In this document: positions 3,199-25,868 of the stretch, in pieces | Position numbering within the stretch: the stretch's first letter is position 1 | Layout: the number at the start of each line of letters is the position of its first letter | NCBI GenBank assembly: GCA_963783575.1 | Contig: CAWAOD010000011.1 | Location: 544,001-608,000 of the forward strand | From: an uncultured Spirochaetota bacterium | GTDB taxonomy: Bacteria > Spirochaetota > Brevinematia > Brevinematales > JAOACQ01 | Direction of reading: 5' to 3' | DNA length: 64,000 nucleotides | Notes under the pieces: model-generated | Told to the model about the DNA's origin: nothing | The model's input: the letters and a program-made list of their open reading frames with translations, nothing else | Databases searched by the model: none | Program-made: the position numbers and the translations under genes

Positions 3199-3240
3199 AT
3201 CATTAAAACCTTCAAAAAATAAGTTAATAGGCGGTTCTAT

Positions 3241-5394: not shown

Positions 5395-5497
5395 CGGGAA
5401 GGCTTCGCTTATTGGATACGGAAACAATGATTGTTATAAATAGTGCATTATTTGTAATATTAGTGAATATTTATTATAATTTACCCTTAATAAAAGG

Positions 5498-5938
5498 ATG
5501 ATCAATATGAAACTGATTCAAATCTTTTATAAGACTATTTATTTTCTAACAGGTATTGTGTCTTTAGTTGTGGGTCTTTGGTTCCTTACAGCAAAGCAGT
5601 TTTTCTATTATCATGCTCAAGCAACCGGTTTGAAATGGGAACAAATCGATCAAAAGCTGCAGCTCATCATTCTGGCTTTAATGAAGGTCGGCGGCGTTGG
5701 ATATATTGCACTTTCACTTTTTTTGATTATTTTTACAATAACCGGTGATTTTGAAAAAAACCGGGTTCTTAAAATATCAATTCCAGTAATTACGATATTT
5801 TTCTATTGCGGGATTTTTGTAATCACTTTTTATGTATATATGCTGACGAAAGCAAATACTCCCTGGAATTTATCTCTTATTGAGATTATAATGCTTTTTA
5901 TTGCGATGATTTTATCTTTTATAAAAATAAAGAAATAA
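5498..5938 (+). CDS. Small integral membrane protein (about 4 TM), unknown function
   Basis: 146-aa ORF with four hydrophobic segments; AAAAGG just upstream. Confidence 0.7.
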   Translation: MINMKLIQIFYKTIYFLTGIVSLVVGLWFLTAKQFFYYHAQATGLKWEQIDQKLQLIILALMKVGGVGYIALSLFLIIFTITGDFEKNRVLKISIPVITIFFYCGIFVITFYVYMLTKANTPWNLSLIEIIMLFIAMILSFIKIKK

Positions 5939-5986
5939 TAATTTAGTTTCCTTTCCTCCAATGGTTTTGATAATAAAATAATTGGG

Positions 5987-7387
5987 TTGATTACTTCTAT
6001 GAAAAACAGTTCATTTGATGGAAAATCAATATGGATATCTACAATAAAATTAAGTTTACCGATGTTATTGTCAAATGTATTAACTACATTTTATACAATA
6101 ATTGATACATATTTTATTTCTTTAATCGATAAAAAATCGACGGCTTATATAAGTGCCGTATCAATCATTAACCCGGTGTTTTTTATTTTTATCGCTTTAA
6201 GCAGCGGTTTATTTATAGGAATAAGTTCTTTAATAGCCAGAAGTTACGGCGAGGGCGATGAGAAGAAAGAAGCAAGCGGATTAATATCGGGACTGACCAT
6301 TTCAATCATTATTTCAATCATTACACTTTTATTCGGTTATATTTTTTTAAAAGATTTGGTAAGGCTCTTTGCAGGAAAAGAATTGTCGGCAGTAGCAATC
6401 AAAAGCGCCGAGGAATTTTTATTTTATTTGCTTCCAGGGTATTGCCTGATGCTGATCGGGAGATCATTATTCGGCGTTTTACAGGGGAAAGGACAGAATT
6501 TTCATATTGCAATTGCCGTTTTAATTTCTAATATATTAAACTGCATATTGGACCCGGTATTCATATTTTATTTTAAGATGGGTGTCGGGGGCGCGGGTCT
6601 TGCGACAAGCCTATCAATACTATTTACTGCAATATATGTACTGACATTATTTGCATTTAATAAATTTAAAATATCATTTGGTATTAAATATCTGAATTTT
6701 CATACAATCAAGGAAATATTACAGATTGGGATAACTCAATCCATAGGCATCTTATCATTATCAGTTTCATTCATCATTGTAAATAAAATTGTCGGCTCTA
6801 TAGGTGAGACGGAAATGAATGCGTTTGGTCTATGCGGCAGGCTTGATCAATTAACATTTTTACCTATATTTGCGATTGCTTCATCAACAGTAACAATAAC
6901 CGGCTATTATTTCGGCAAAAAAAATTATAATATCATCAAAGAAATATTTATAAAGAATTCGATTCTTGGAATCCTTAGTATGCTGGCATTAATATTGATT
7001 TATATTATTTTTTCTCCTCAATTATTCGCTTTATTTTCCGACAATCAAACCGTAATAAATAAAGCTGTTTATCAGGCCCGGATAGTTTCATTAAGTTTCC
7101 TTGGGATAGCGCTGGAATCAATAGCAGTATCCACATTCCAGGGGATGAAATATCCCCCGCCGTCTTTTTTGCTTATAATAATCAGAATGTTTATTGTAAT
7201 CCTTCCGCTTTCTTATTTTTTTGTATTTTTTTTAAAATTAGGTATGAATGGAATATTTATTAGCTATATAATCGCTCATATCAACACAGGCATAATTTCC
7301 TGTATCTGGATTTATTATTATCTCAAGAAATATAACTTATGGAGAGAAACTGTTAAAGTTGAAAATCCGGCTCTGATCCGATTTTAA
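5987..7387 (+). CDS. MATE family efflux transporter
   Basis: LSLPMLLSN..TFYTIIDTYFIS, NCILDPVFIFYFKMGVGGAGLAT, about 12 TM with internal duplication; start may be the ATG near 6000. Confidence 0.92.
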   Translation: MITSMKNSSFDGKSIWISTIKLSLPMLLSNVLTTFYTIIDTYFISLIDKKSTAYISAVSIINPVFFIFIALSSGLFIGISSLIARSYGEGDEKKEASGLISGLTISIIISIITLLFGYIFLKDLVRLFAGKELSAVAIKSAEEFLFYLLPGYCLMLIGRSLFGVLQGKGQNFHIAIAVLISNILNCILDPVFIFYFKMGVGGAGLATSLSILFTAIYVLTLFAFNKFKISFGIKYLNFHTIKEILQIGITQSIGILSLSVSFIIVNKIVGSIGETEMNAFGLCGRLDQLTFLPIFAIASSTVTITGYYFGKKNYNIIKEIFIKNSILGILSMLALILIYIIFSPQLFALFSDNQTVINKAVYQARIVSLSFLGIALESIAVSTFQGMKYPPPSFLLIIIRMFIVILPLSYFFVFFLKLGMNGIFISYIIAHINTGIISCIWIYYYLKKYNLWRETVKVENPALIRF

Positions 7388-10094: not shown

Positions 10095-10112
10095 TTTTAT
10101 ACCTCATTTATC

Positions 10113-13100
10113 TTAAAATTCGCCTTCCACATATTTTGTTCCGGCTGGAGTTTCAGATGTTTTTTCTTTATGTGACCAGAGGATAGTTTCAATATATTCA
10201 GCCATATAAGAGACTGTAGGATCCTCAAAAATAACGTTATTGACCGGCAATTCAACTTGAAAATCCTTCCTCAGCCTTGAGATCAAACGGGCATTCATCA
10301 GGGAATCACCGCCTAACTCAAAAAAGTTGTCATAAATTCCGATGGGTTTTATGCCCAGAGTTTCTTCCCATATATTTATAATCGTTTTTTCCAGGTCATT
10401 TCGGGCGGGAGTATATTCTTTTTTCAGGTCTGGCCTGGAACCGAATGAAAGGGCTGAGTTTTCTGCGGTTGAATTATTAATTGAAAGATTAATGTCTGAA
10501 AGTATGATTTCATTCGGTTTAGATCCTGATATTACAACCTGCGGAGGTATCCCCCGGATCATAAGACGATCAAAAAGTTTTCCGGCGTTCTGTGGAATTT
10601 CGCGGCCGGTATTATCCCAATTTAACGTAATCCATTCGGTGCTGCTGAATTTATTGATTTCCCGGATAAATGAATCAAGCCAGGTATATAAAGATGAGTG
10701 AACCGGGGAATTTGAACTTCCGGTATACCCGGTAATAGCAGAGTTTACTGCGATGAAATCAGGGGGATTTTGTGAAACGGCAGTATTAAGATTATTAATC
10801 TCTTTTTTAACATTATTTATAAGACTATTAAAATCAATAATATTGAATGCGTTGAGTGAACTGATGGTTTGCTCCGCTAACAAAGCGGTTCCATACAGGA
10901 TACCGTCAACCCTGCCGGAAATCTCTGCCGCTTTTTTAAACACTTTTTCCATATCGCTTAATATTGTAAGATCTGCTTCTATAAAATCGATACCTGTAAT
11001 ATTTTTTAATTCGGCAGCATTTTCAGGAATAGTATAACCCGGGCGTTGAGTCATAATAATCTTGGCATTATACTTTTGAGCTAAATTCCGGGCAATCGAA
11101 ATTTCTATTTCATTGTGTGAATTTAGAAAAAGATAAGTGCCTTTTTCTTTCAATATACCGATATGATTAAATGGTTCTTCAAGCGTAACCGGTTCAAAAT
11201 CCTGAACCCAGCGTATATTCCTTCGATAAGCTGTTGCTTTATTTGCTTCTTCTATCATAATATCGGAAATAATGGTTTCCGCAAGACCTTCTGATTTGAT
11301 TTCTATTGCAGGATCTTCAGGGCTGATATCTATTAAACGGCATTTCAGATGCGGAAACAAAAGGGGAATAGTTTTCATTAAACCGATAACCGGCTGGAGG
11401 TTCAGATCGATCCGGTCATTAGAATTTATTTCAAATAGATTATTGAAGATCGAGGTAATCCTGATTTCTGATTTAATTTTACTTCCGGCTGTATAACTTG
11501 ATAATAAAAGAAGGTTTTGAAAATCGCTTATTCCCTCATCGGACTTCTGAAGTCCCCAAAGATATAAAATATTATCAATAGGTTTTTCCCGGTTCTGTAT
11601 TTCTTTAAATAATGTTAAATAATCTTCGGGGTTATCTGTGGATATAATGAACTGACCGCCATTGATCTTTTTATATCCTGAACCTCTTCGGATAATAATC
11701 AAATCCTGTCCCCGTTCCGATAAATTTCCGATTAATTTTTCACTAATTTCACTGTCATCAGTGAGAACCAGCCATGTGTTACCTTGCCGATAATTTTTCT
11801 TTAAAATGGGAACCATCGATTTTTTGAAAAAAGGCAGGTATATTTGTCCGGATAAATCCTGATAACCGGATGATGTTTTTTTTATTTGAGAAAGATCCGG
11901 ATAGATCCAGCATGGTTTTTTGTCGAAAGGGTAGGCCGGCAGCGATACCCTGCACCTGGATTCTTCCTTAAAATACTTGTCCCAATCAACAGTAACACCT
12001 GAGAGCCAGAGCTGCGACAAGGTTTGCTTTATGTGTAAAACCGGGCTAATATTTTCCTTTTCCTGAAGCATTGAATTCAATATGGTATGGTCTTTAGATA
12101 TCCCCGGATGCTGGCTGAGCAATGTTTTAAGAGTTCTACCCGGGCCAATTTCTAACAGAATCCAGTCGCTATTTTCCAGTAATATTCCGGAAGCATCATA
12201 AAACCTGACAGTATTCCGTAGATGATTGACCCAGTATTCCGGGTTTAAGGCATCGTCGCCCTTCATCCAGTCTCCGGTTAGAGTTGATACATAGGGAATA
12301 GTTGGTTTATTGAAACGGATTGTCTTTACTTTTTCTAAAAAAGCCGGAAGGATTTGGTCCAGCATTGAGGAATGGAATGCATGAGAAATACTGATCTTCC
12401 TGACGAAAATACCCTGGCCATCCAGATTTGTTTTTAGATTTGCGGTATTTTCTTTAGGTCCTGAAATGGCGCAAAGGGATTGACCGTTAACCGCTGCCAA
12501 TGATAAGCAACCGTTTAATAACGGAAGTATTTTCTCTTCTTCCAGAGAAACAAGCAGCATATCGCCTTCTGGAAGACTGTTAACAAGGCTTGCCATTGTT
12601 AATACAAGGTCGATGGTATCTTCTAAAGACATAACTCCGGCAAGACAGGCGGCTGTGTATTCTCCGATACTATGCCCGGTCATCGCTATTGGAATGATTC
12701 CCCATGATATCCAGAGCTTTGCAAGACTATACTCTATTATAAATATTGAAGGCTGTGAATATAACGCCGTATTTAATATTTCCATGGCTTTTTCAATATC
12801 ACCGGACTCGGGGTAAATAAATGATTTCAAATCTATCCCGGAAAACTTTGTCACGATAGTAAAACACTCATCCATTGTCTCCTTAAAAAAGGGCTCCGAT
12901 TCATACAACTCCTTCCCCATATTAACATACTGCGAGCCCTGCCCCGGAAATAAAAAGACAGTTTCTCTTCCTGTTTTCTCCTCAATTTTCCTGTATATTT
13001 TTGGAGAAGTAATATCACTCAGCGCATTCCTGGCTTCCTGTGCGTCCTTGCAGATAAATGAAAGACGGTGGCTGAAGGTTTTGCGTCCTGCGGCAAGTGT

Positions 13101-14588
13101 GAAGGAAGCATCCGGAAGGATTGAAGCTTTATCTGAACTGAAATAAACCGACATCTCCCTGGCTTTATTGACCAATGCCGTTTCAGATTTTGCAGATAGA
13201 TTGATTATATAATATTTAGAATTACCGGAATCTTTAGATTTTTCAGTAAACGGGGCTTCCTGCAAAATTACATGGGCATTTGTCCCTCCGATACCGAAAG
13301 AACTGACCCCGGCACGCCTTGGCGAGCCGATTGCAGGCCCTTGCGAATCCTTGGTTTTCCAGTCAACAGTAGTGGTATTGACGTAAAACGGGCTGTTTTT
13401 AAAATCGATCTTTGGGTTAGGAGTTTCAAAGTTCAGGCTGGCTGGAATCTTTTGGTACTTTAATGAAAGAACTGTTTTTACTAAACCTGCGACACCGGCC
13501 GCCGCGTCCAGATGCCCGATATTGGTTTTTACGGAACCGATCGCACATGAGTTTGGTTTGACATTGCCGGTATTAAAAGCCTTAGTAAGTGCGGCTATCT
13601 CAATAGGGTCGCCGATAGCCGTTCCGGTACCATGAGCTTCAATGTATGATATTGACTCGGGCTTCAAATTAGCCAGAGTTATTGCCTCGTAGATTACGGA
13701 AGCCTGTCTTTCGAGGCTGGGAGCAGTATATCCCGCTTTTAGAGAACCGTCATTATTGATTGCCGAACCTTTGATTATTGCATATATCTGATCATTGCCA
13801 TCCAGCGCTTCGGATAAAAGCTTCAGCACTACAATTCCAGCTCCGTTGCCGATTACTGTCCCCTGGGCTTTTGCATCAAAAGCACGGCAGCGGCCGTCAG
13901 GAGAAAGAACAATACCTTCGTTATAGAGGTATCCTGATTTTTGCGGAATCCTGAGGGAAACTCCTCCCGCAAGGGCCATATCGCATTCTCCAAGCCGAAT
14001 GGCCTGGCAGGCCGTATGTACTGCAACTAATGATGTTGAACAGGCTGTTTGTATTGTTAAGCTAGGGCCTTTCAGATTTAGTTTATATGAAATCCTTGTC
14101 GCAAGAAAATCTTTGTCGCTAGCAACCATTATATGATACCCGCCTCCTTCTTCCATAAGGTTCCTGTGAGACTGAAGATTATTATATAAATAAGTGTTCA
14201 TTCCTGTACCGGCATAAACTCCAATCCTGCCCCGGTAAATTTCGGGATTGTACCCTGAGTCTTCAAGAGCCTTCCAGGCTTGTTCCAAAAACAGTCTTTG
14301 CTGAGGATCCACAAAGGAGGCTTCACGCGGGCTATAATCAAAAAACGGCGCATCGAAATTTTCGATGTTGTCAATTATGCCGCTTGATCTTACATACCGC
14401 GGATTATTGTATATTTCAGAACTGATTCCGGAGGCTTTTAATTCATCATCGGTAAATGTAGAGATACAGTCCCTTCCCGCTGCAAGGTTTTTCCAGAAGA
14501 TTTCCGCATTTTCAGATTTTGGGAAACAGCAAGATAAACCAACGATTGCTATATCGTTCGGATTGATTTCTTCAATATATTTTTTCAT
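10113..14588 (-). CDS. Type I cis-AT PKS module KS-AT(malonyl)-KR(inactive)-ACP with C-terminal docking motif
   Basis: KS: DPQQR, QTACSTS, EAHGTGT, KTNIGH. AT: GQGSQ, GHSIG, HAFHS (malonyl). KR fold lacks GGxGxxG and the catalytic Tyr. ACP: GGDSL. Start placed at ATG 14588 (MKKYIEEINPNDIAIVG) rather than 14663. Confidence 0.95.
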   Translation of the reverse strand: MKKYIEEINPNDIAIVGLSCCFPKSENAEIFWKNLAAGRDCISTFTDDELKASGISSEIYNNPRYVRSSGIIDNIENFDAPFFDYSPREASFVDPQQRLFLEQAWKALEDSGYNPEIYRGRIGVYAGTGMNTYLYNNLQSHRNLMEEGGGYHIMVASDKDFLATRISYKLNLKGPSLTIQTACSTSLVAVHTACQAIRLGECDMALAGGVSLRIPQKSGYLYNEGIVLSPDGRCRAFDAKAQGTVIGNGAGIVVLKLLSEALDGNDQIYAIIKGSAINNDGSLKAGYTAPSLERQASVIYEAITLANLKPESISYIEAHGTGTAIGDPIEIAALTKAFNTGNVKPNSCAIGSVKTNIGHLDAAAGVAGLVKTVLSLKYQKIPASLNFETPNPKIDFKNSPFYVNTTTVDWKTKDSQGPAIGSPRRAGVSSFGIGGTNAHVILQEAPFTEKSKDSGNSKYYIINLSAKSETALVNKAREMSVYFSSDKASILPDASFTLAAGRKTFSHRLSFICKDAQEARNALSDITSPKIYRKIEEKTGRETVFLFPGQGSQYVNMGKELYESEPFFKETMDECFTIVTKFSGIDLKSFIYPESGDIEKAMEILNTALYSQPSIFIIEYSLAKLWISWGIIPIAMTGHSIGEYTAACLAGVMSLEDTIDLVLTMASLVNSLPEGDMLLVSLEEEKILPLLNGCLSLAAVNGQSLCAISGPKENTANLKTNLDGQGIFVRKISISHAFHSSMLDQILPAFLEKVKTIRFNKPTIPYVSTLTGDWMKGDDALNPEYWVNHLRNTVRFYDASGILLENSDWILLEIGPGRTLKTLLSQHPGISKDHTILNSMLQEKENISPVLHIKQTLSQLWLSGVTVDWDKYFKEESRCRVSLPAYPFDKKPCWIYPDLSQIKKTSSGYQDLSGQIYLPFFKKSMVPILKKNYRQGNTWLVLTDDSEISEKLIGNLSERGQDLIIIRRGSGYKKINGGQFIISTDNPEDYLTLFKEIQNREKPIDNILYLWGLQKSDEGISDFQNLLLLSSYTAGSKIKSEIRITSIFNNLFEINSNDRIDLNLQPVIGLMKTIPLLFPHLKCRLIDISPEDPAIEIKSEGLAETIISDIMIEEANKATAYRRNIRWVQDFEPVTLEEPFNHIGILKEKGTYLFLNSHNEIEISIARNLAQKYNAKIIMTQRPGYTIPENAAELKNITGIDFIEADLTILSDMEKVFKKAAEISGRVDGILYGTALLAEQTISSLNAFNIIDFNSLINNVKKEINNLNTAVSQNPPDFIAVNSAITGYTGSSNSPVHSSLYTWLDSFIREINKFSSTEWITLNWDNTGREIPQNAGKLFDRLMIRGIPPQVVISGSKPNEIILSDINLSINNSTAENSALSFGSRPDLKKEYTPARNDLEKTIINIWEETLGIKPIGIYDNFFELGGDSLMNARLISRLRKDFQVELPVNNVIFEDPTVSYMAEYIETILWSHKEKTSETPAGTKYVEGEF

Positions 14589-14697
14589 ATATTTACCATC
14601 CAATTTTCTTATTCGATATAAAGAGGAAGCCTGTTTGATTGTCAATTCCTCAATTTTAATCAAGAAAGAATTATATCTGGATCAAACGGCATGTTTG

Positions 14698-17600
14698 TTA
14701 AAAATCAAGACGGCTCTTTTTTCTCAAATCCCTCTGGGAATCTATTTGAGAAATTTTATTTTTCCTGGCCTCCACATTTTCTTCATCGAGAGTTTTTCCT
14801 GCATATGATGTATTTTGCGAAAGGTAAACCGCCAGAGAAGAAATTGTCGGATATTGAAACATCTCGACTATGCTGATGGGTTTTTCGGGAAATTCCGGTT
14901 CTAACTTTGTATGCATCTGTACCATAAGCATAGAGTTTCCGCCAAGCTCAAAAAAATTATCATTAACACCGATCTTATCAAGCTTAAGTGCATCCTGCCA
15001 GATAAGTGCGATCTTTTGTTCCATATGGCTTTTTGGTGCAACATAAACGCTTTCCAGTTCCGGCCTGATATAGTCCGGCACCGGCAGTGTTTTCCGGTCT
15101 ATCTTTCCATTTGGTGTTTTTGGAAATTCTTTTAAAAACACGAAATAAGAAGGGATCATATATTCAGGAAGTTTCTCTATAAGATAATGCCGCAGACCGC
15201 TTGTAGTAACCCCTGGATTTGAGCAGATGCAATATGCGATTAGCCTTTTGTCCTGAGGTTTATCCTCACGGACTATGACTATCGACTCTTTTATCGATTC
15301 ATGCTTTGAAAGCACGCTTTCAATTTCTCCAAGTTCTATCCGAAATCCTCGGATCTTCACCTGAAAATCGCTGCGTGATAAGAATTCAATATTGCCATCC
15401 GGCAGGTATCTGGCAAGATCTCCTGTTTTATATATTCTTGATTCATTATCATTAATAAAAGGATTTTTAATAAACCGTTCATCCGTTAATTCTTTCCTGT
15501 TGTAATATCCGCGGGCAACTCCATCCCCGCCGATGTAAAGATCTCCGGTTACTCCAACCGGTACCGGATTAAACCTGCTGTCCAGGATATACATTTGGGT
15601 ATTGTCAATCGGTTTTCCGATAGGGATTGGATACCGCACTTCTTCAATTTTGTAAATACTTGACCAGACTGTGGTTTCAGTAGGGCCGTACATATTCCAG
15701 ACTTCACCTGAACATTGCACGAGCTTTTCTGCAAGCTCCGGTGGAAAAGCCTCTCCGCCGCAGAGAATTTTCAAAGTTTTGCTGCCCTTCCAGCCGTTAT
15801 CCAGTAGAAGTCTCCAGACAGAAGGTGTTGCCTGCATAACTGTCACGTTGTTTTTATCGATTTCTTCAGCAAGGGCTTTTCCATCAGTAATAGTTTTCTG
15901 GTTCATAAGAATAACCTTAGCCCCTGTTGTAAGAGGCAGGAAGATTTCAAGGCCAGCGATATCGAATGAAATGGTTGTGACTGACAATAAGGTATCTTCC
16001 TCTATTAGACCGGGATTCTTCCGCATTGAGTTAAGAAAATTTACTATTGCGCGGTGAGGAATCTGAACGCCTTTCGGCTTTCCTGTTGAACCGGAAGTAT
16101 ATATCATATAAGCCAGGTTATGAAGGCTAACTTTTATATCCGGATTCAGTGAACTTTCTTTATTAATGTCTTCATTATCTTTATCCAGGCAGACCGGCTT
16201 GATAAAAGGGAAAGAAAAATAGTGCAGGAATTTTTCCTCGGTGATGGAAGGAATAGCGCCATTCTGCGAAATATCTTCAAGAATCAATGCGATTCTGTCT
16301 TTCGGATAAATGGGGTCAAGCGGCAAATAATAGCCTCCGGCCTTTAATATCCCTAATAATGCTGCGATAAGATTTAGCGAGCGTTCAAGGCAGACCGGCA
16401 CTACCGATTCTTCCTTAACACCAATCCGCTTCAGATAATGTGCGATACGGTTTGCTCTTTGGTTAAGTTCGCTGTATGTAATGGATTCTCCTTCAAAAAG
16501 GATTGCTATCGCGTCCGGTCTTTTATCTGCCTGTGCTTCGAAAAGTTTGAACAACGGCTTGTTCGGGTATTCTGCTTTTGTAGAATTCCATTCCCGCAAG
16601 AGTTGATCTTTTTTCGAATCGGGAAGAAATTGCATTGATGTTAACGGGTTTTTCATATCCCGGCAGACAACATCAAGTAATGTGATAAACTCAGTGCTCA
16701 TTCGCTGTATTGTATCTTTTGTGAAAAGACCGGTATTATACTGGAATGAAAAAGCAAATCGATTTTCAATGTCTGCTGCCAGAAGGGTCAGATCAAATTG
16801 AGATGATTGGCATCCAAGCGGAAGAAGCCTGACTTTTAGTCCCGAAATATCTGTATCTATAGGCATTTCGTTCAATGAAAACCCTGATAAACCTGCAAGT
16901 TCCGGGTTCGGTGATTTCTGGTATGAAAACATAATTTGAAAAATCGGCGAGCGGCTTAAATCACGGGCCGACTGGAGCTTGTCCACAATAAGTTTAAAAG
17001 GATAATATTGGTTTTCAAATACTCTAAGTACATTGGTCCTTACAGTTTCTAGTAAATTCCGGAAGCTTTCGCTGCCTTCAAACCGAGTCCTGATAGGTAT
17101 TGGGTTTATGAAATAACCGCTAATCGGGAAAAACTGCGCGCTTTTACGGCTTGCGCTGGGCGTACCGACAATAATATCCATCTGTCCGGTATAGCGGTAT
17201 AAAAAAACATAAAAAACCGACAGCAAAAATACAAAAGGCGTGCAATTGTATTGACCGCATAACCGTCTGATTTCATCACTCAATGGCTTTCCTGTTTCTG
17301 TAAATACCGAATCTCCTTTAAATGTCTGAACGGGAGGTCGCGGCAAGTCCGTATTTATGCTCACAGGTTGAATATCTCCGCTTAATTCTTTCTTCCAGAA
17401 TTCTTCCGCCGGCTGATTTTTTTCAAGGTATTCCCGTTGCCATTCTATAAAATGATAATATGATCCGCTTTCTTTTATTTCTCCTGCTGTTCCGGTTTTT
17501 TTTATCCTTGAGTAATACCCGCCAAGGTCTGAAGCTAAATAAGACAGCGACCAGAAATCGGTAATAATATGGTGGAACACTAACAACAGCAGATAATCCC

Positions 17601-20076
17601 CGGTGTTCTGCTTTCCGATGAAAACTCTCCATAAGGGTAATGTTTCCAGATCGAAAGGTTCGTTAGCTTTTTGGATCAACAATTCTTTGCAGGCTGATTC
17701 GCTTAAATTCATAAGATCAAGTTTTTTCATTTCAAAAACAAATTCTTTTTCAATTTTTTGCAGTACATTGCCGTCTTTCATGATAAACCTTGTCCTGAGA
17801 GCAGGATGCATTCGTGTCAAGGCGGTAAAAGCTTTTTCCAGGGCATTGCAGTCAAGTGGTTCGATCATTTTAAAAGCATATGATAAATTATACGCGGAAT
17901 TTGCCGGCGACATCTTCTGGATGAACCAGAGTGCCTGTTGACCCTGAGACAAAGGATATTCATCCGGTATAACTTTATCTGCGCTGGAACGAATGACTTC
18001 AGCGATATTTTCCATGCGGTCCAGAATAAGCCCGCTCATTTTTTGTATGCTGATTCCTTCAAGAATTTCAGCCATAGAAATATTAACCCTTAACGAAACC
18101 TCGATTAAATGAGTCAGATCAATAGTCATCAGCGAATCAAGACCATAAACCGCCAGATTTTCCAGGATATCGATTTCATCCTCACGTCTCTTCAGGATTT
18201 TTGAAATTTTCTTCCTGAGATACATCGAAATAATATTCTGTTTGTCGGCTTTCTGACTGACCAGTTTTAATGTTGATAAAATGAAATCATCTACCTCAGG
18301 TGATTCAGCTTTAGTATTAGTTTCTATAATTTCAGGCTGATTTTGGTTCATTTCTTCAATAATACTTTTGCCGATAATCTGCAGATCATCTTCCAGGAAT
18401 TTCTTTTTGCAAAGCTGCCTCTGGATTTTACCGCTGGAGGTCTTGGGTATGCTCATAAAGCGGATAAAAACGATGGTATAAAGCTGTATTTCAAATTGTT
18501 CCGAAACCGCTTTTCTCGCAGCATCTACGATTTCTTTTAAATCTTGCTTCGCGAAATCACGCTTTATCTCAAACACTCCTGCCAGCTTTTCTTCGCCCTC
18601 AGCCTCAATTGAAAAAGCCGCGGAACTTCCGGGAACAAAACCAGGATGGCTTTTTTCAATAACGTATTCAATATCCTGAGGGTAGAAATTTCTTCCTCGG
18701 ATAATTATCAAATCTTTAATCCGGCCAGAAATATACAGTTCACCGTTCCTTAAGAAGCCAAGGTCGCCGGTCCGTAAAAACGGGCCTTCTCCGTCAGATA
18801 AAACCGCTCCGAATGTCTTTGTAGTTTGTTCTTCCTGTTTCCAGTAACCGCCGGCCACGCTCTTACTTGCTGTCCAGACTTCACCGATTTCCGAATCGCC
18901 GCATTCCGTCAGTTTCTCCGGATCTACGATTTTTACTTTTACATCTTTAAAAACCTTGCCGGAACTGACTAAAGTCTTGCTGTTATCACCTGTAGAAATT
19001 TCTACCAGATTTCTGCCGAGTTTATCTGCGTCAATATCGATAGAAAGATGTAGTTCAAGATAGTTTTTACCAGTAACTATTAGTGTTCCTTCAGCCAGGC
19101 CGTGACATGGGTGAAACGCTTCCTTTCTGAATCCGTATTCCTTGAATGTGTCATAAAACTTAAGCATTGTATCTTCGCGGACCGGTTCTGCCCCGTTAAA
19201 TGCAACTTCCCAGGATGAAAGATCAAGTTGTTTTTTTTCTTCTTCCGTGATCTTTTGAACGCAAAGTTCATAGGCAAAATTCGGACCCCCGCTGGTTGTG
19301 GCTTTGTAGTCGCTAACCGCTTTAAGCCAGGTAAAAGGTTTCTGTAAAAATGAGAACGGCGACATTAATGTTACGGGAAAGCCTCCGTATATTGGCTCAA
19401 GAATTCCTCCGACAAGACCCATATCATGATAAGGAGGCAGCCAGACAACACCACGGCTTTGGTTATTTAGCCCGAAATTATTATGAATCGTTTCAAGGTT
19501 ATGTATGACATTTTCATAGGTTATCATTACACCTTTCGGGTTGGAAGTCGATCCGGAAGTATATTGCAGATAAGCCAGTTCATTCTGACGGACGTTTACA
19601 GGTTTATAATTATTAATCGAATCATTGGGAATAGCTTCAAAATCAATCCATTCAATGTTCTTTAATGCCGGTTTTGTTTCAAATAATTTATCCATTTTCA
19701 TTAATATGCTTTGTACGGTCAATACAATAGCTGCACCGGCGTCCTGAAGCATGGTTTCGATTCTTATGTCAGCCCGGTTGATTTTTGGCGGGTACGACGG
19801 CACCGGGACCATACCGGCGTATAAACATGCGAAAAATCCTGTAATATAATCAAGTCCAGGCTGGAAGAAAAGCAGGATCCGGTCGTTTCTTTTACCGATC
19901 ATCTGAAGGTATCCGGCGGTATTTCTGACCCGCTTGTCAAACTCCGCGTAAGTATATATTAATGGAACTTCCGAAGCATCGGTTATGAAAGTGTATGCCG
20001 TCTTGTCCGGGTCACTTAAAGCAAGATTTTTTAAAATATCCGGAATGGATAATTGCTTTTGATTATCTTGTTTCAC
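14698..20076 (-). CDS. NRPS initiation protein FAAL-ACP-C-A(Gly)-PCP
   Basis: FAAL: YLQYTSGSTSNPKG, WLPPYHDMGL, GGPNFAY, GRNFYPQDIE, PKTSSGKIQR. ACP: GLDSL. C: HHIITD. A: FDIAGLE, MQATPS, NMYGPTETTVWS, giving a by-eye code DILQLGMVWK (Gly type). PCP: GGNSM. GTG start with GAGGG upstream. Confidence 0.95.
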   Translation of the reverse strand: MKQDNQKQLSIPDILKNLALSDPDKTAYTFITDASEVPLIYTYAEFDKRVRNTAGYLQMIGKRNDRILLFFQPGLDYITGFFACLYAGMVPVPSYPPKINRADIRIETMLQDAGAAIVLTVQSILMKMDKLFETKPALKNIEWIDFEAIPNDSINNYKPVNVRQNELAYLQYTSGSTSNPKGVMITYENVIHNLETIHNNFGLNNQSRGVVWLPPYHDMGLVGGILEPIYGGFPVTLMSPFSFLQKPFTWLKAVSDYKATTSGGPNFAYELCVQKITEEEKKQLDLSSWEVAFNGAEPVREDTMLKFYDTFKEYGFRKEAFHPCHGLAEGTLIVTGKNYLELHLSIDIDADKLGRNLVEISTGDNSKTLVSSGKVFKDVKVKIVDPEKLTECGDSEIGEVWTASKSVAGGYWKQEEQTTKTFGAVLSDGEGPFLRTGDLGFLRNGELYISGRIKDLIIIRGRNFYPQDIEYVIEKSHPGFVPGSSAAFSIEAEGEEKLAGVFEIKRDFAKQDLKEIVDAARKAVSEQFEIQLYTIVFIRFMSIPKTSSGKIQRQLCKKKFLEDDLQIIGKSIIEEMNQNQPEIIETNTKAESPEVDDFILSTLKLVSQKADKQNIISMYLRKKISKILKRREDEIDILENLAVYGLDSLMTIDLTHLIEVSLRVNISMAEILEGISIQKMSGLILDRMENIAEVIRSSADKVIPDEYPLSQGQQALWFIQKMSPANSAYNLSYAFKMIEPLDCNALEKAFTALTRMHPALRTRFIMKDGNVLQKIEKEFVFEMKKLDLMNLSESACKELLIQKANEPFDLETLPLWRVFIGKQNTGDYLLLLVFHHIITDFWSLSYLASDLGGYYSRIKKTGTAGEIKESGSYYHFIEWQREYLEKNQPAEEFWKKELSGDIQPVSINTDLPRPPVQTFKGDSVFTETGKPLSDEIRRLCGQYNCTPFVFLLSVFYVFLYRYTGQMDIIVGTPSASRKSAQFFPISGYFINPIPIRTRFEGSESFRNLLETVRTNVLRVFENQYYPFKLIVDKLQSARDLSRSPIFQIMFSYQKSPNPELAGLSGFSLNEMPIDTDISGLKVRLLPLGCQSSQFDLTLLAADIENRFAFSFQYNTGLFTKDTIQRMSTEFITLLDVVCRDMKNPLTSMQFLPDSKKDQLLREWNSTKAEYPNKPLFKLFEAQADKRPDAIAILFEGESITYSELNQRANRIAHYLKRIGVKEESVVPVCLERSLNLIAALLGILKAGGYYLPLDPIYPKDRIALILEDISQNGAIPSITEEKFLHYFSFPFIKPVCLDKDNEDINKESSLNPDIKVSLHNLAYMIYTSGSTGKPKGVQIPHRAIVNFLNSMRKNPGLIEEDTLLSVTTISFDIAGLEIFLPLTTGAKVILMNQKTITDGKALAEEIDKNNVTVMQATPSVWRLLLDNGWKGSKTLKILCGGEAFPPELAEKLVQCSGEVWNMYGPTETTVWSSIYKIEEVRYPIPIGKPIDNTQMYILDSRFNPVPVGVTGDLYIGGDGVARGYYNRKELTDERFIKNPFINDNESRIYKTGDLARYLPDGNIEFLSRSDFQVKIRGFRIELGEIESVLSKHESIKESIVIVREDKPQDKRLIAYCICSNPGVTTSGLRHYLIEKLPEYMIPSYFVFLKEFPKTPNGKIDRKTLPVPDYIRPELESVYVAPKSHMEQKIALIWQDALKLDKIGVNDNFFELGGNSMLMVQMHTKLEPEFPEKPISIVEMFQYPTISSLAVYLSQNTSYAGKTLDEENVEARKNKISQIDSQRDLRKKSRLDF

Positions 20077-20120: not shown

Positions 20121-21590
20121 TCAAACGGCGTCAATTATTATCTTTAAAATTGACAGGTAATTTCCGGCAATGCTTTCAATAGTAGACTGCCGGTAATAAT
20201 TACTGCTGTAAACCCATTGTAGGAAAAGTTGTTCATGGCTTATAAAGCAAATACATTCAAGCGGAAAAAAGTAATCTTCATCGGGTCCGGCGCGCATACC
20301 TGGATTTTCTTTAGCCACCCTTATATTTGGAACTTCATAATCTACACGGCCAAGGTAGTTGAATAACAATTTACAGCCTTTGAATTCCATCATTAATTTT
20401 TTAATCCGTATTTTATTTTCATCACCAAACCTGCACAATAATGCATAGCCTAATCCGGAATTGGGCGCTTTTTTAAACTGCTCATCTATAAATCTTACCT
20501 TTTCGAATATCGAATCATTTTGTATTGAATTCATATCCGACTTCTTTACAATAAGCGACCGGCTTGTGGCAAGAAAACCGACTGTCCTGCTAAGATCCAT
20601 ATCTTTTGTAAAAGGATAACCGATGCGCCCCGAATCGGTAGCTTCAAAATAAACCCAGTCCTCATTCATCCGCTGGCAGACGGATTCTACTAATGGCACC
20701 ATTAGCAAATTATCAAAAGAAGTTTGATAATAAGCCGGAATATCCTTGAAGAGTTTTTGAGTTTCATTTTCAGAAAGAGCCATAGTATACTTTTTAAGAG
20801 AACCTTCGGTAATTTTTGCCGAACCCGGAAAATCAGATTTCAAATTTAAAGTTTTATCCCAGGGTAGTTTTGACCAATATTCAACTTCAGATTCTAACTC
20901 CTTCGAATAGCAATACGAATTGAGAGCTGCAACGTAATCGGAAAAAGGAGTGATTTCTCCCGGAAGATAAATCTTGCCATCCTGCAGGATTTGCTGATAA
21001 GCGGTTAAAAAATCATTCAGCAGAATTGTAAGAGAGGTTATATCGCAGAGCAGGTGGTGCGCTACTATTAAAAAGCGGTTTGGCCGGCCTTTACCCATAT
21101 TAAAATAAGCTATCCGGATCAGCGGTCCGTTAGTTATATCAAGTGAATTTTGTATCTTTTCGGCAGCCGCTTCAATGGCATTTTTTTGATCGTCTTCTTT
21201 GATATCAGAGTAATCGAATGCTTCAAAAGGAACATCTTCAATGGAATTTTTTATATACTGTTTCCATATTCCATTTTCCTTGACAAACCTGGCTTTCAAT
21301 ACTTCATGACAATCGAGCAGATATGAAAAAACCTGTTTTATTAGAGACGGCTCTAAAGGAAGATCTGTTTCCAATAATCTGCACATATTATAGCGCGCTG
21401 GATTTATCCTGTGTATGATTGAATCTAAAAAAGTAAACTGGTTGTAGCTCAGAGGGATTGATCTTTCTATTCCTGTTTTCTCTTTTTCTGCAACTATAAC
21501 TTTTTTCATAGAATCAAGTTTTTTAATATCAGCCAATTTGGCTAATTTTGCAATAGTTGGGTTTTTTGACAAATCACCGGGATTAATCAT
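20121..21590 (-). CDS. C-terminal part of the upstream NRPS: end of the PCP plus an epimerization-like condensation-superfamily domain
   Basis: Starts with PCP-terminal sequence (DLSKNPTIAKLA). E-domain hallmarks HHLLCD, DLSRTVGF, PNSGLGY, FNYLG. In frame with 21597-25868 across one TAG. Confidence 0.88.
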   Translation of the reverse strand: MINPGDLSKNPTIAKLAKLADIKKLDSMKKVIVAEKEKTGIERSIPLSYNQFTFLDSIIHRINPARYNMCRLLETDLPLEPSLIKQVFSYLLDCHEVLKARFVKENGIWKQYIKNSIEDVPFEAFDYSDIKEDDQKNAIEAAAEKIQNSLDITNGPLIRIAYFNMGKGRPNRFLIVAHHLLCDITSLTILLNDFLTAYQQILQDGKIYLPGEITPFSDYVAALNSYCYSKELESEVEYWSKLPWDKTLNLKSDFPGSAKITEGSLKKYTMALSENETQKLFKDIPAYYQTSFDNLLMVPLVESVCQRMNEDWVYFEATDSGRIGYPFTKDMDLSRTVGFLATSRSLIVKKSDMNSIQNDSIFEKVRFIDEQFKKAPNSGLGYALLCRFGDENKIRIKKLMMEFKGCKLLFNYLGRVDYEVPNIRVAKENPGMRAGPDEDYFFPLECICFISHEQLFLQWVYSSNYYRQSTIESIAGNYLSILKIIIDAV

Positions 21591-21596
21591 TAATCC

Positions 21597-24500
21597 CTAA
21601 TGATGTGCCATATCAATTACTCTCAAGCCTGTAAGTGAATCACCTCCAATCTGAAAGAAATCATCATAAATTCCAATTTGCTCAAGTTTCATAACAGTCT
21701 GCCAGATGGATACGAGTTTCTTTTCTGTATCGTTTCTTGGAGCAGTATATTTAGATTCCCTGCTTAAGCCCGTACCACCCCTGGATTTTAATTTTTTTCT
21801 ATCAATTTTACCTGTAAGAGTTAAAGGCAAAGAATTCATTTTAATAAATGAAACCGGGATCATATATTCAGGCAGGCGAACTTTGAGAAAATCGACAATT
21901 TCACCCAGCTTAATTTCTACATTATTTTCCGGAACGAAATATGTTATTAACTGTTTTTCACCCTGATTTTTATCCTCAGCCATTACCACGGCCTCTTTTA
22001 TACCAGGAAACCCAAGCATAACAGTTTCTATCTCCGATGATTCGATCCTTATTCCTTTGATTTTTAATTGCAGGTCCCTACGGCCAAGATGTTCCAGACA
22101 ACCGTCCGTACGAAGCCGGCCAATGTCTCCGGTAAAATACATTCTTTCCGGACCGCCGTCCGGATTTTTCTTGAAAGATTTTTCCGTCTGGTCATCCAGT
22201 TCCCAATATCCCGGAGATAGGTAAGCGCTTTTTATAACTATCTCGCCCGGCCTGTTGTAATGTACCGGATTGCCGGCTTCGTCAACCAGCAGAATTTCGG
22301 TATCCGTAACTTTGTAACCTACTGGAACAAGGTTCCCGATAAGTTTTGTGTTTTTATCAATGGGATATTGCCTTATAACATTCAATTCCGTTGCACCTAA
22401 ACCGTTCACCAGAACGCAACTATCCGCGAAATATTTTTTATATGAATCCACGTCAAAAGACGAGACTGGTTCTCCTCCAAAATCAATTATCCTGAGCTTT
22501 GGAAAGGATGACACATCCTTAGATGACATATCTTCAATCGAAGTAACAAAGTGCCTGAAAACCGTCGGGACAGAATGGTATATTGTAATATCATTATCAT
22601 TCAGCCAACCGGCGAGTTTTTGCGGGCCGTTTTCTTTAATGTTATAAAGACACAACGTAGCTCCGTTCGATAATGCAGCAAAAACATCCATCATAGCAGC
22701 GCTGAAACTGAATGACGGGATCAGTGAAAGCTTGTCATCCCTGCCGATATGCAGCCCGTTTGTATAGTTCATAATAAAATGCAGGACATTCCTGTGTTTT
22801 TGCATTACGCCTTTAGGATGTCCGGTTGAGCCGGAAGTGTACATTATATATGCCAGATCTTCAGGCCCGGAAAAGTCTTCCTTGCTTTCGTCAGTCTTGT
22901 CATCTTTATAAATTTCTTTAATATTCAAAATCTTAATATTTTTATTTACCGGGTTTCTGATTTCGTATGCCAATTCCTCATTTTCATCATCAGTTATAAT
23001 CAAATGCGTGTTAGTGTCATCCAGGATATAACTCAAACGTTCTTTCGGATAGTCGGGATCTAACGTGACAAAAGAATTGCCGCTTTTAAGCACTCCCATA
23101 ATTCCGGCTACAATCCTAATGCTGTGGCCTATCAGGAGCGCGATTATGCTAGGTTTATAATTATCCATCTTTTTCGTATCAATGGATTGTATGAATAAAG
23201 ATTCTTTGGGTATTTTATCCTCTATTGACGAGCACAAAGGGCAATGGGGGTCTTTTTCGATTTCGATTTCCTCTATAAATCGCCCGGTAAATCCCTTTTC
23301 CCAGTCAAAACCGTTCTTTTTGCAGGTTTCGATAAAATGCCTGCTGAAAGGGTAGGTGACAATCTTATAACCTCTTGTCTGGGAAAGTCTGTCCGATCCC
23401 TGGTTATTAAAGAAGAAATATTTATTGTAGGAAGGGTTTTCAAATCCCAGGACTATTTTCAATGCTTCATTTACAGCGAACCCTGTGCTCAGAAATAGTG
23501 CCGGAGAAGAAACACAATTGGCTACTTTATTCCAGCCGCTGTTTTCTTTCCGGAGTTCCATGACAGTGTCCAGTTTTTTTATATCATAACAGCAGTGGAA
23601 ACAGGGAGTGTAAGGCGAATGGAATATAACGGCATAAGAGCTCCTTTCGATCATTGACGATAGAACATGCGGAATGCGCTTTGCCACAGCGTATTCCGAC
23701 AATGCAAATTTCGCTTCTATACTGTCAACATTATCAAATATTATTGCCGAGTTTCCCACCAAGTCGGAAACAGTATTTTTGTCTATTTTTTCTTTTCTTA
23801 CAATTACTTTTACATTTGGGTTTATTCTTTGAACCGATATGGCCGCAGATTCGGCTTTATTCATACCGATCCTGGATTCGTCATGAAGAACCTGCCGGTT
23901 TAGGTTGGACAGTTCAACATTATCGAAATCACAGATTATGATTGTACCGACTCCCAATAATGCTAGCTGCATAATAACAGGCGACCCTGATCCGCCGGCT
24001 CCTGCCGCAAATACTGTCAGGCCTTTCAATTTTTCCTGTGATTCTATTCCCCATTGATCCAGGATAAGCTGCCTGGTATACCGTATTTTTTCTTTTTTTG
24101 AAAGCCCGGGTAAATTATCAATACTGTTTTTTATTATATAACTTAAACGACCGGACAAAGTCTTTAATTCAAGGTATGTTAATTTCTCATCATCCATTTC
24201 TATTGCAATTTGCTCTGGATTTTCAAGTACCTGTATTTCAAATCTTCCGATGATTGACTGCTCAATCTCTTCCTTCCGGAATGGAATAAATTGGTGATCG
24301 ATTATCACCGGTTTCGGTTCGATCGGGATTAATTCTGGGAGTTCGTTTATAAAAAGTTCCGGTTGATCCGCCAGCCGGGCCGTTAGAATTTCAAAATGAT
24401 TTACCAGCCAATTTACGGTATTTTCAGAATATAAATCAGCTTTAAAAGAGAAATCCATCTGGATCCCAAGCTCGTGTTCAATCGCAAGCAAGGTGATGTC

Positions 24501-25868
24501 GAATTTGGAATTGATATTTTGGGCCCCGATGATATCCCGGTTGTATGGTTCTATTTCAAGCCCGGGGAGTTTCCAATTATACCTGGCGCTGTACATATTG
24601 AATAAAACTTGAAATATAGGAGTTTTATTCCGCTGTCGCGGCGGTTTTAGTTCCTCAACCAATAAATCAAAAGGGATTTCCTGGTTTGATAAAGCCCCGG
24701 ATGAAGATTCCTTAACAGATTCAAGAAGATCTGTAAAGCGGATATTATCGCTTATTCCCGTACGTATAACGACCGTATTGAAAAATAACCCGATTAACGG
24801 TTCGAGATCACCTCTGTTTCTGCCTGCAATAGGTGACCCAACAACAATATCCCTGATCCCGGAGTATTGATGAAGCAATACCTTAAAAATAGATAAAATT
24901 GTAACATAAAGCGAATAACCGTATTTTTTACTGACCGATTTTAATTTAGCTGTGATATTACCGGTAATCATATAGTTTTTACGGATACTTTTATAGGATA
25001 AGACTTCAGGACGATTAAAATCGCCGTAAATTTCCGGTATATTCTCAATATTATTCAGTTTGTCTTTCCAATAGGATAACTGGAGTTCCTTTAATCCGCC
25101 GTTAAGCCTGTCATTCTGCCATTTGGCATAATCGGCATATTGAATTGACAATTCAGGCAGTACCGCGGTTTCACCGGTAACATATTCCGTATAAAAAGCT
25201 ATTAATTCCTGAACGAAAATATACAACGATTGATTGTCGCATATGATATGATGAAATCCAAGCACCAGAACATGTTCATTTTCTGATACTTGAAGCAGTC
25301 TGGCACGAATCAGCGGGCCTTCGGCAAGGTTAAAAGGTGAGCTTAATTCTTCATTGTATTCGGCTATTACTTTTAAGTCTTTTTCGTTTTCTGATAATTT
25401 AATTATGTCGATAAGAGGCATATCTATTTTTAAATCCCGCGATATGATTTGATTCACTTCGCCATTGTTATTTATATAATTGGTTCGAAGTACTTCATGC
25501 CTTTGAATGATCCGGTTCATACTTTTATGGAGAGCTTTATAATTGAGTTTTCCTCTAAGACGGAACGCTATCGGAATATTGAAAGCACTGCTTTTTTCAT
25601 CCATCTGGCTGTGAAGCCATAGCCATTTTTGGCCGTAGGATACTGGAATATCTTCATTACGTGGGATTGGTTTTATTGGAGAAAAAAACGAGCTCTCCCC
25701 ATTCAGAGATTCAACAAAGCGGATGATTTCTTCCTTGTTATCTGTGATTTCTGCTTTAATTTCATCATTCAGGGCTCCGGCAGGTGCTTTATATTTAAGA
25801 GTTCCTTCTTCAACCCAGATTTGTATTCCTAGATTTTTCACCCTATATAATAAATTTACTATATTCAT
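21597..25868 (-). CDS. NRPS: TubC_N/beta-hairpin docking domain - C - A (interrupted by a ThiF/MoeB domain) - PCP (cut by TAG)
   Basis: N-terminal LGIQIWVEEGTLKYKAPAGAL. C: HHIICD. A1 LTYLEL, then ThiF insert (RYTRQ, GAGGSGS, DFDNVELSNLNRQ, two CxxC), then A2 LKSG..LDPDYP, A3 YTSGSTGHPKG, TGD, GRRDLQLKIKG, PLTLTGKIDR. PCP GGDSL. AAGGA RBS. Confidence 0.93.
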   Translation of the reverse strand: MNIVNLLYRVKNLGIQIWVEEGTLKYKAPAGALNDEIKAEITDNKEEIIRFVESLNGESSFFSPIKPIPRNEDIPVSYGQKWLWLHSQMDEKSSAFNIPIAFRLRGKLNYKALHKSMNRIIQRHEVLRTNYINNNGEVNQIISRDLKIDMPLIDIIKLSENEKDLKVIAEYNEELSSPFNLAEGPLIRARLLQVSENEHVLVLGFHHIICDNQSLYIFVQELIAFYTEYVTGETAVLPELSIQYADYAKWQNDRLNGGLKELQLSYWKDKLNNIENIPEIYGDFNRPEVLSYKSIRKNYMITGNITAKLKSVSKKYGYSLYVTILSIFKVLLHQYSGIRDIVVGSPIAGRNRGDLEPLIGLFFNTVVIRTGISDNIRFTDLLESVKESSSGALSNQEIPFDLLVEELKPPRQRNKTPIFQVLFNMYSARYNWKLPGLEIEPYNRDIIGAQNINSKFDITLLAIEHELGIQMDFSFKADLYSENTVNWLVNHFEILTARLADQPELFINELPELIPIEPKPVIIDHQFIPFRKEEIEQSIIGRFEIQVLENPEQIAIEMDDEKLTYLELKTLSGRLSYIIKNSIDNLPGLSKKEKIRYTRQLILDQWGIESQEKLKGLTVFAAGAGGSGSPVIMQLALLGVGTIIICDFDNVELSNLNRQVLHDESRIGMNKAESAAISVQRINPNVKVIVRKEKIDKNTVSDLVGNSAIIFDNVDSIEAKFALSEYAVAKRIPHVLSSMIERSSYAVIFHSPYTPCFHCCYDIKKLDTVMELRKENSGWNKVANCVSSPALFLSTGFAVNEALKIVLGFENPSYNKYFFFNNQGSDRLSQTRGYKIVTYPFSRHFIETCKKNGFDWEKGFTGRFIEEIEIEKDPHCPLCSSIEDKIPKESLFIQSIDTKKMDNYKPSIIALLIGHSIRIVAGIMGVLKSGNSFVTLDPDYPKERLSYILDDTNTHLIITDDENEELAYEIRNPVNKNIKILNIKEIYKDDKTDESKEDFSGPEDLAYIMYTSGSTGHPKGVMQKHRNVLHFIMNYTNGLHIGRDDKLSLIPSFSFSAAMMDVFAALSNGATLCLYNIKENGPQKLAGWLNDNDITIYHSVPTVFRHFVTSIEDMSSKDVSSFPKLRIIDFGGEPVSSFDVDSYKKYFADSCVLVNGLGATELNVIRQYPIDKNTKLIGNLVPVGYKVTDTEILLVDEAGNPVHYNRPGEIVIKSAYLSPGYWELDDQTEKSFKKNPDGGPERMYFTGDIGRLRTDGCLEHLGRRDLQLKIKGIRIESSEIETVMLGFPGIKEAVVMAEDKNQGEKQLITYFVPENNVEIKLGEIVDFLKVRLPEYMIPVSFIKMNSLPLTLTGKIDRKKLKSRGGTGLSRESKYTAPRNDTEKKLVSIWQTVMKLEQIGIYDDFFQIGGDSLTGLRVIDMAHH

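Follow-up and report, generated by a model that had tools for sequence, protein, structure and literature searches.

The window described here is a stretch of 64,000 nucleotides from an uncultured Spirochaetota bacterium (assembly GCA_963783575.1, contig CAWAOD010000011.1, positions 544,001 to 608,000). It carries a nonribosomal peptide synthetase (NRPS) gene whose adenylation (A) domain is split, between its core motifs A1 and A2, by a complete ThiF/MoeB-type domain, that is, an E1-like adenylating domain. The open reading frame (ORF), designated P0001, occupies positions 21597..25868 of the minus strand, on which all its features lie. According to the ORF list and Pfam, it encodes 1423 amino acids (aa) in the order docking domain, condensation (C) domain, A domain with ThiF insert and peptidyl carrier protein (PCP), and is closed by an in-frame TAG. 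A TubC_N-type docking domain forms the N terminus (aa 3-51, 25716..25862, Pfam E = 1.8e-16), followed by the C domain (aa 72-510, 24339..25655, Pfam E = 2.3e-94). The N-terminal piece of the A domain spans aa 530-580 (24129..24281), as delimited by BLASTP, motif positions and a structural model, with A1 (LTYLEL) at 24165-24182. The insert, aa 581-906 (23151..24128), comprises the complete ThiF/MoeB-type domain, a C-terminal extension and a linker (Pfam, BLASTP and alignments). The remainder of the A domain follows at 21807..23150 (Pfam, BLASTP and motif positions), with A2 at 23055-23090, A3 at 22809-22841, A4 at 22686-22712, where Ser replaces Asp235, A5 (NGLGATE) at 22386-22406 and A10 at 21795-21815. 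The first part of the PCP lies at 21609..21719, with GGDSL at 21633-21647 (Pfam).

The borders of the insert were set at aa 581-906 because the BLASTP alignment with the A domain of the neighbouring NRPS gene, which is uninterrupted, covers aa 543-580, A1 included, stops there and restarts at aa 907. Where the insert lies, in the loop following the first helix of the A domain, the neighbour has just 7 residues. Pfam matches PF00899 (ThiF) at aa 597-824 (23397..24080; E = 6.1e-53, profile positions 1-221 of 238, 179.9 bits against a cut-off of 28.1), and found no other family in aa 581-906. The motifs of the insert are RYTRQ (24069-24083), GAGGSGS (23982-24002), DFDNVELSNLNRQ (23892-23930), FDNVD (23724-23738), CFHC (23592-23603) and, as the second Cys pair, CPLC (23232-23243). 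Pfam on the 1423-aa ORF gives an AMP-binding match (aa 907-1222) that covers profile positions 47-384 only, an AMP-binding_C match (aa 1279-1354) and a cut PP-binding match (aa 1384-1420). Motifs A1 to A10 are all present in a single reading frame, A1 before the insert and A2-A10 after it. An earlier reading of this DNA from its letters alone (the sequence-only reading) had proposed a complete ThiF/MoeB domain within an A domain between A1 and A2, and this is borne out by Pfam and BLASTP. The profile searches that it had suggested matched AMP-binding and Condensation as well as PF00899, and the motifs that it had named (LTYLEL, GAGGSGS, DFDNVELSNLNRQ, GMNKAESA, DNVD, CFHC, ANCVSS, CPLC, A2 and A3-A10) are all found where it had placed them.

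Residues 530-1380 were modelled with AlphaFold2 from a 44-row alignment. The model folds both parts (mean pLDDT 83.7, pTM 0.75); the A1 piece reaches a pLDDT of 90-96, and the only ill-defined stretch is the linker after the ThiF part (residues 889-903). When superposed on GrsA PheA (1amu_B), the A part gives a target-normalised TM score of 0.76 and a root-mean-square deviation of 3.2 A over 458 columns. The sequence-only reading had raised the question of whether the A fold closes around the insert, and the A part is indeed predicted to match the GrsA fold. A homodimer of the ThiF part was also predicted, with an ipSAE of 0.89 against 0.00 for the best control, a mark attained by 20 of the 30 solved pairs and, among 23 single chains, by 1. 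Contacts are shared between the runs to at least 97%, the partner has a pLDDT of 89 or more, and RYTRQ of one copy contacts LSNLNR of the other. Since solved dimers of MoeB and ThiF exist, the prediction is taken to express likeness to these dimers only, and may be recall by the model.

The closest solved relative of the insert is E. coli MoeB, matched over residues 4-225 of 249 (1jw9_B, E = 6.8e-27), and Uba4 and ThiF come next; PaaA, TcdA and MccB are far weaker matches in the PDB (E = 1.6e-16 for PaaA and 1.5e-12 for MccB). The whole fold aligns with E. coli MoeB and ThiF (1jw9, 1zfn), including the Gly loop, the Arg finger, the catalytic Asp and the four zinc-binding Cys, and in the predicted homodimer the Arg finger would act in trans, as in these enzymes. 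RY.RQ, GAGG.GS, D.D.VELSNLNRQ, NKA, FDN.D and both CxxC pairs are conserved across 119 aligned inserts. This set includes the residues of the ATP site, namely the Gly loop, the N-terminal Arg finger (R..RQ), the phosphate binders NRQ and NK, and the catalytic Asp residues. The four Cys of CFHC and CPLC are invariant in the 44-row alignment and conserved in the 119 sequences. The insert differs from MoeB and ThiF in that it is embedded in a synthetase, has a conserved extra segment of about 50 residues (YPFS...GFDW) towards its C terminus, ahead of the second CxxC, and misses every NCBIfam ThiF or MoeB equivalog cut-off (TIGR02356, 151.4 versus 275.25; NF004281, 148.5 versus 266; TIGR02355, 124.5 versus 376.55), and in that a MoaD/ThiS partner was not found in the host genome. 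Free-standing relatives of about 300 aa (P0150, P0156, P0163 and P0169) have their Met just before RY.RQ and end just past the second CxxC. The insert is, by its predicted extent, a full ThiF-type protein. With P0150 as the query, 37 loci were retrieved from metagenomes; these are generic ThiF/MoeB genes, only 29-43% identical. In the host genome, one weak PF00899 match only (32.7 bits, contig 14) was seen besides the insert.

Of the 8000 candidates of one length band that were scored in a homologue search with residues 545-960, 234 proteins reached E <= 1e-3; they represent at least 234 clusters at 90% identity within that band. ThiF and AMP-binding (PF00899 and PF00501) occur in a single protein for 119 of the 120 homologues listed. 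These come from NCBI, ENA, JGI and Logan assemblies and from Aminicenantes, Acidobacteriota, Omnitrophota and Bacillota, and the carriers include three isolates: Ruminiclostridium hungatei DSM 14427, Wukongibacter sp. M2B1 and Clostridiaceae bacterium M8S5. In a representative library of 1.84 billion proteins, there were 24,099 matches to the insert at E <= 1e-3, of which only 107 reached E <= 1e-30; the best 63 (E <= 1e-80; representatives at 50% identity) range in length from 390 to 6216 aa, with 61 above 800 aa. The sequence-only reading had proposed a search of other genomes for the same architecture, and the order A1, ThiF, A2 was found in 49 proteins of independent assemblies. In R. hungatei, it is encoded by one intact ORF of 2047 aa. 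A check of reads found only one public run holding 5% of the sampled words; the contigs from this run span short conserved stretches, and bridge neither the junctions nor the TAG.

The 121 ThiF occurrences were classed by their distance to A cores. ThiF lies between A1 and A2 in 49, between A2 and A3 in 16, and between A8 and A9 in 10; in a further 32, it is found between A8 and A9 with vestigial A1' and A2' pieces flanking it. It is N-terminal to a whole A domain in 4 occurrences, and its position is unclear in 10. Pfam on ten representatives was consistent with these classes. One protein, P0054, is an intermediate, in which an Asp-type A domain is followed by ThiF within a degenerate A core (A5 = TGLGTDL). 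The insert is not restricted to the A1-A2 site, and belongs to a family that uses several sites. ThiF-bearing modules include starter modules, elongation modules and modules terminated by a thioesterase, a spread that, judged from predicted domain order, is the behaviour of a monomer-tailoring domain. In many related modules (P0034, P0045, P0054 and others), the C domain is linked to the Asp- or Glu-type A domain through a fused B12-binding or radical-SAM domain, so that another unusual in-line tailoring domain is present in the same protein as the ThiF insert.

A FastTree phylogeny was built from the 119 inserts, 4 free-standing relatives and 4 out-groups, with no rows dropped. The NRPS inserts form one clade together with P0150 and P0156 (support 99), within which the A2-A3 forms are monophyletic (support 98) and 44 of 48 A1-A2 forms fall in one group (support 83). 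The ThiF clades track the pocket code of the A domain. No evolutionary direction was drawn from this tree because of its midpoint root and the long branches of the out-groups.

Insertion of a whole foreign catalytic domain into one A domain, flanked by A motifs in a single ORF, is known from the interrupted A domains, which are a main route for NRPS modules to gain extra chemistry. Besides methyltransferases, the known inserts are redox domains (ketoreductase, oxidase and monooxygenase), and the window insert is none of these. Interrupted A domains with methyltransferase inserts have been catalogued in families 1-7, with the sites a2-a3, a6-a7 and a8-a9 (Lundy, Mori and Garneau-Tsodikova 2020, PMC8341866). 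In the available text of that article, 'ThiF', 'MoeB' and 'a1-a2' occur 0 times (term search). ThiF relatives also occupy a2-a3 (16 of 121) and a8-a9 (42 of 121), as methyltransferase inserts do, but the window insert differs from a methyltransferase in being an ATP-dependent adenylating domain of the E1-like type, and its a1-a2 site is outside those listed in the available parts of PMC8341866. The sequence-only reading knew of no described example, and the full-text literature, subscription journals being outside its scope, yielded none for this insert or site, nor any paper describing a ThiF/MoeB/E1-like domain in an NRPS. We conclude that the ThiF insert is a new variant of interrupted A domains.

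We then considered the host A domain. In 46 proteins of the A1-ThiF-A2 type, A3 (YTSGSTG.PKGV), A7, A8 and the Lys of A10 are conserved. A5 reads NGLG(A/P)TE in these proteins, with Leu in place of the aromatic residue of the usual motif N.YGPTE, a change common to the whole group of A1-A2 forms with DAMH and SAMH codes. Both adenylating units look intact and under selection, as far as conservation indicates. The sequence-only reading had put two independent ATP-activating chemistries in one module; for the family this gains support from the conservation of both catalytic sets (119 inserts and 46 A domains), and the window copy is cut by its TAG.

The nine pocket positions were taken from a hidden Markov model alignment of 136 A cores, and numbered according to what we take to be the GrsA numbering. 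As a sanity check, the neighbouring A domain reads DILQ....W, a Gly-type code. Among the A8-A9 forms, the codes are DLTK/DLSK in 24 domains, DAKD in 9, DARH in 5 and others in 4; the A2-A3 forms have DPRH (13) and DARH (3), and the A1-A2 forms DAMH (22), SAMH/SAVH (24) and others (3). DAMH is presumably similar to a second Glu code starting with DAWH. Over all classed ThiF-bearing A domains, DLTK/DLSK occurs 24 times and DAKD 11 times. DLTKVGHI is the Asp code of surfactin, and DAKDLGVV its Glu code, according to the available parts of PMC3207962 (Table 2) and PMC10548584. Position 239 or 278 is occupied by Lys, Arg or His in 109 of the 111 classed ThiF-bearing A domains, compared to 4 of the 25 other A domains of the same proteins, and 3 of these 4 are DLTK domains in proteins left unclassed. 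The suggestion of the sequence-only reading that a second carboxylate could be activated gains support from the Asp-like and Glu-like codes of the ThiF-bearing A domains in the relatives.

In the window clade, the pocket reads SAMHIFGVI, with Ser where the neighbouring A domain and LgrA have Asp235; this Ser is common to the 24 proteins of the clade, and the sister clades carry Asp. The window copy retains the Lys of A10 (Lys517) but lacks Asp235, which binds the alpha-amine. Because Ser aligns with this Asp, the monomer of the window clade probably has no free alpha-amine, and it is probably a Glu-like diacid of that kind.

ThiF-type enzymes adenylate a carboxylate, and three of them offer a parallel outside the MoeB group. 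PaaA, of the pantocin A pathway, acts on Glu residues, and MccB, of the microcin C7 pathway, forms a succinimide. Both have the ThiF fold and adenylate a peptide carboxylate, after which an amide nitrogen closes a ring (available parts of PMC12596934). They differ from the insert in being free-standing, in having an N-terminal peptide-binding part and in acting on a ribosomal peptide; the insert and its free-standing relatives have no N-terminal peptide-binding domain of this type, and all begin at RY.RQ. The third is OxzB, a ThiF-nitroreductase oxazolone synthetase, which, like the insert, is joined to a second catalytic domain; its substrate is a small N-acyl amino acid, whose carboxylate it adenylates before cyclisation follows. 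It differs in acting on a free substrate outside any assembly line and in its nitroreductase fusion; the window NRPS ORF has no nitroreductase domain according to Pfam. OxzB is described, in the available parts of a 2025 review (PMC12596934), as the only validated ThiF-like enzyme outside the peptides that ribosomes make and that are modified after translation (RiPPs), and a role in NRPSs is there said to 'stand to reason'.

Taken together, these data suggest that the insert is a tailoring domain acting in cis, which would adenylate the distal carboxylate of an acidic monomer bound to the carrier; we give this interpretation about an even chance. It would be a catalytically competent E1-like domain, carried as methyltransferase domains are in other interrupted A domains. 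The in-cis role is proposed because the ThiF domain accompanies an A-PCP pair wherever the module sits in the assembly line, and the distal carboxylate because it is the only free one on a thioester-bound monomer of the Asp or Glu type. The A domain would first load a dicarboxylic building block on the PCP of the module via one carboxylate. The phosphopantetheine arm would then offer the free carboxylate to the ThiF site, much as the ubiquitin-like tail enters MoeB, and a second ATP would be spent by ThiF to adenylate it. The acyl-adenylate could be caught by the backbone or alpha nitrogen, giving a lactam or an imide, by an external amine, or by a hydroxyl. The ThiF parts of two synthetase chains would pair as in MoeB, and the predicted dimer suggests that the module is probably dimerised through this pair. 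What the sequences show is the architecture, the conservation of the two catalytic sets, the family with its several insertion sites and the pocket codes of the acid type; the substrate of the ThiF domain, its timing on the PCP and its product are inferred.

A broader proposal, which we advance more tentatively and consider somewhat less probable than its failure, is that these modules represent a new class of assembly-line tailoring. The E1-like domain would activate the side-chain carboxylate of a carrier-bound Asp, Glu or Glu-like monomer, for on-line ring closure (pyroglutamyl, imide or even beta-lactam-type), side-chain branching or macrocyclisation, in an obligately dimeric module joined by its ThiF pair, and the clade lacking Asp235 would do likewise on a non-amino diacid.

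Several points weigh against the activation of a distal carboxylate on the carrier. In an elongation module, formation of a lactam with the alpha-amine would block chain growth. The code of the window copy (SAMH...) is not known to match any other code and lacks Asp235, and its acidic monomer is extrapolated from relatives. A basic residue at position 239 or 278 is missing from 2 of the 111 classed domains (DAWD and DSWD). The pocket positions themselves were set by an assumed GrsA numbering, with the Gly-type code of the neighbour as the sole internal check. The tree was made quickly with FastTree, is rooted at its midpoint and has long out-group branches. Finally, the A-like scaffold around ThiF can be left without an A core of its own, as P0054 and the 32 flanked forms show, so that the host A domain need not be active in every case.

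This last point also bears on the alternative that survives best, which is unlikely all the same: ThiF could act before the A domain or instead of it, by converting a substrate still free in solution, such as Glu into a lactam, for loading by the A domain, or by adenylating the monomer and passing it to the phosphopantetheine thiol as an E1 enzyme passes ubiquitin to its Cys. The absence of Asp235 from the window clade would be expected if the monomer has no basic amine, and the Leu in A5 (NGLGATE) and the degeneration of A-like scaffolds beside ThiF point in the same direction. However, the 46 A1-A2 proteins preserve A3, A7, A8 and the A10 Lys of the host A domain, and a degenerate scaffold is always adjoined by a complete Asp- or Glu-type A domain.

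Slightly less probable is a role in sulfur chemistry, an option listed by the sequence-only reading, in which the adenylated carboxylate would be converted via a persulfide or sulfide into a thiocarboxylate, as by ThiF and MoeB, to give a thioacid or, at a later stage, a thioamide. The closest solved relatives (MoeB, Uba4 and ThiF), the top NCBIfam matches, which are ThiF and MoeB models, and the mostly anaerobic-type lineages of the carriers (Aminicenantes, Bacillota and Spirochaetota) would suit it. Against this, PF02597 (ThiS/MoaD) had 0 matches at E <= 0.01 in the host genome, which is 89.85% complete, but was matched in 12 of 14 control genomes, and canonical ThiF/MoeB systems appear to be absent from the host genome. 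The scores of the insert are well under the ThiF and MoeB equivalog cut-offs (151 versus 275 and 148 versus 266). In ThiF, a Cys of the crossover loop forms an acyl-disulfide, and the sequence-only reading had placed the Cys of ANCVSS near the crossover-loop position of MoeB; this Cys (Cys785) is present in the window copy but not conserved, the family consensus there being Pro (119 sequences). Neither a rhodanese nor a desulfurase domain was found in the protein or the cluster. Sulfur insertion is therefore disfavoured, since ThiS/MoaD is unmatched, the loop Cys is not conserved and no sulfur-transfer domain was found.

Equally improbable is that the ThiF fold was kept as a scaffold only, for dimerisation or docking, adenylation having been lost. 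A MoeB-like homodimer is predicted, and a precedent exists in PchE, an NRPS subunit that dimerises via an inserted domain, according to the available text of PMC8807600. But the entire ATP site (Gly loop, Arg finger, NRQ, NK and both Asp) is invariant or nearly so in 119 sequences, down to about 40% identity, and this argues against a pure scaffold, which would not need it.

It is very unlikely that the ThiF domain works as in RiPP pathways, by adenylating the C terminus of a small protein or ribosomal peptide that would then be joined to the NRPS product. Characterised ThiF-like enzymes do mostly target the C termini of peptides or proteins (available parts of PMC12596934), yet the insert starts right at RY.RQ, MccB aligns with it only from residue 88-91, its N-terminal peptide-binding part being without counterpart, no convincing precursor ORF was found in the 1.8 kb upstream, and no ThiS-like gene in the genome. 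Lastly, an assembly chimera or chance juxtaposition, which a genome in 18 contigs, about 90% complete and probably a metagenome-assembled genome (MAG), with junctions not spanned by public reads, might have suggested, has a negligible probability and can be excluded because the same junctions recur in the 49 proteins of independent assemblies and in the single 2047-aa ORF of R. hungatei.

If the activation of a distal carboxylate on the carrier is correct, the embedded E1-like domain adds ATP-driven activation of a second carboxylate to the NRPS repertoire, and it would be the first ThiF-like enzyme linked to nonribosomal synthesis. The interrupted A domains catalogued in the available parts of PMC8341866 carry methyltransferase domains. 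Members of this large family occur across uncultured anaerobic lineages, and the intact copy in a cultured, non-pathogenic isolate, R. hungatei DSM 14427, makes the question directly testable.

The window copy itself is probably inactive, as predicted from the TAG at 21597-21599 (minus strand), which truncates the PCP in its middle; the closest relative has Gln (a CAG-type codon) at the same position. The same frame continues after the TAG (20121..21590, minus strand; P0002) with the rest of the PCP and a terminal condensation-superfamily domain, possibly epimerase-like (TIGR01720, 52 bits, below the cut-off of 74.2). The TAG reflects a nonsense mutation or else a base error. Recoding of TAG was rejected as unlikely, since TAG ends 2 other long frames in the window and the closest relative has Gln there; the long frames of the window end with TAA in 20 cases, TGA in 6 and TAG in 3. 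In the nearest genome, a Spirochaetota MAG whose ThiF part is 90% identical, a frame change close to where ThiF begins divides the gene into two overlapping frames (8245-10071 and 9992-13978), owing either to a frameshift or to a sequencing error.

Further along the minus strand, the neighbouring NRPS gene (14698..20076) encodes a fatty-acyl-AMP-ligase-like domain, an acyl carrier protein (ACP), a C domain, an A domain with the Gly-like code DILQ and a PCP (Pfam and pocket code). It is followed by a polyketide synthase (PKS) module of ketosynthase, acyltransferase, ketoreductase and ACP (10113..14663, Pfam) and an acylase of the penicillin amidase family (7485..10094, Pfam), both on the minus strand. 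On the plus strand lie a MATE exporter (5987..7387) and a second penicillin amidase gene (3241..5394). In R. hungatei (positions 406-7157 of its locus), a PKS, one penicillin amidase and a MATE exporter likewise accompany the ThiF NRPS, and the locus also holds an NAD-binding protein and an unannotated ORF of 411 aa. The amidases and the MATE exporter may point to an acyl-prodrug step. A large ORF at positions 1-3198 of the plus strand, open at the window start and at least 1065 aa long, has a weak sub-threshold match to a KaiC-type ATPase only.

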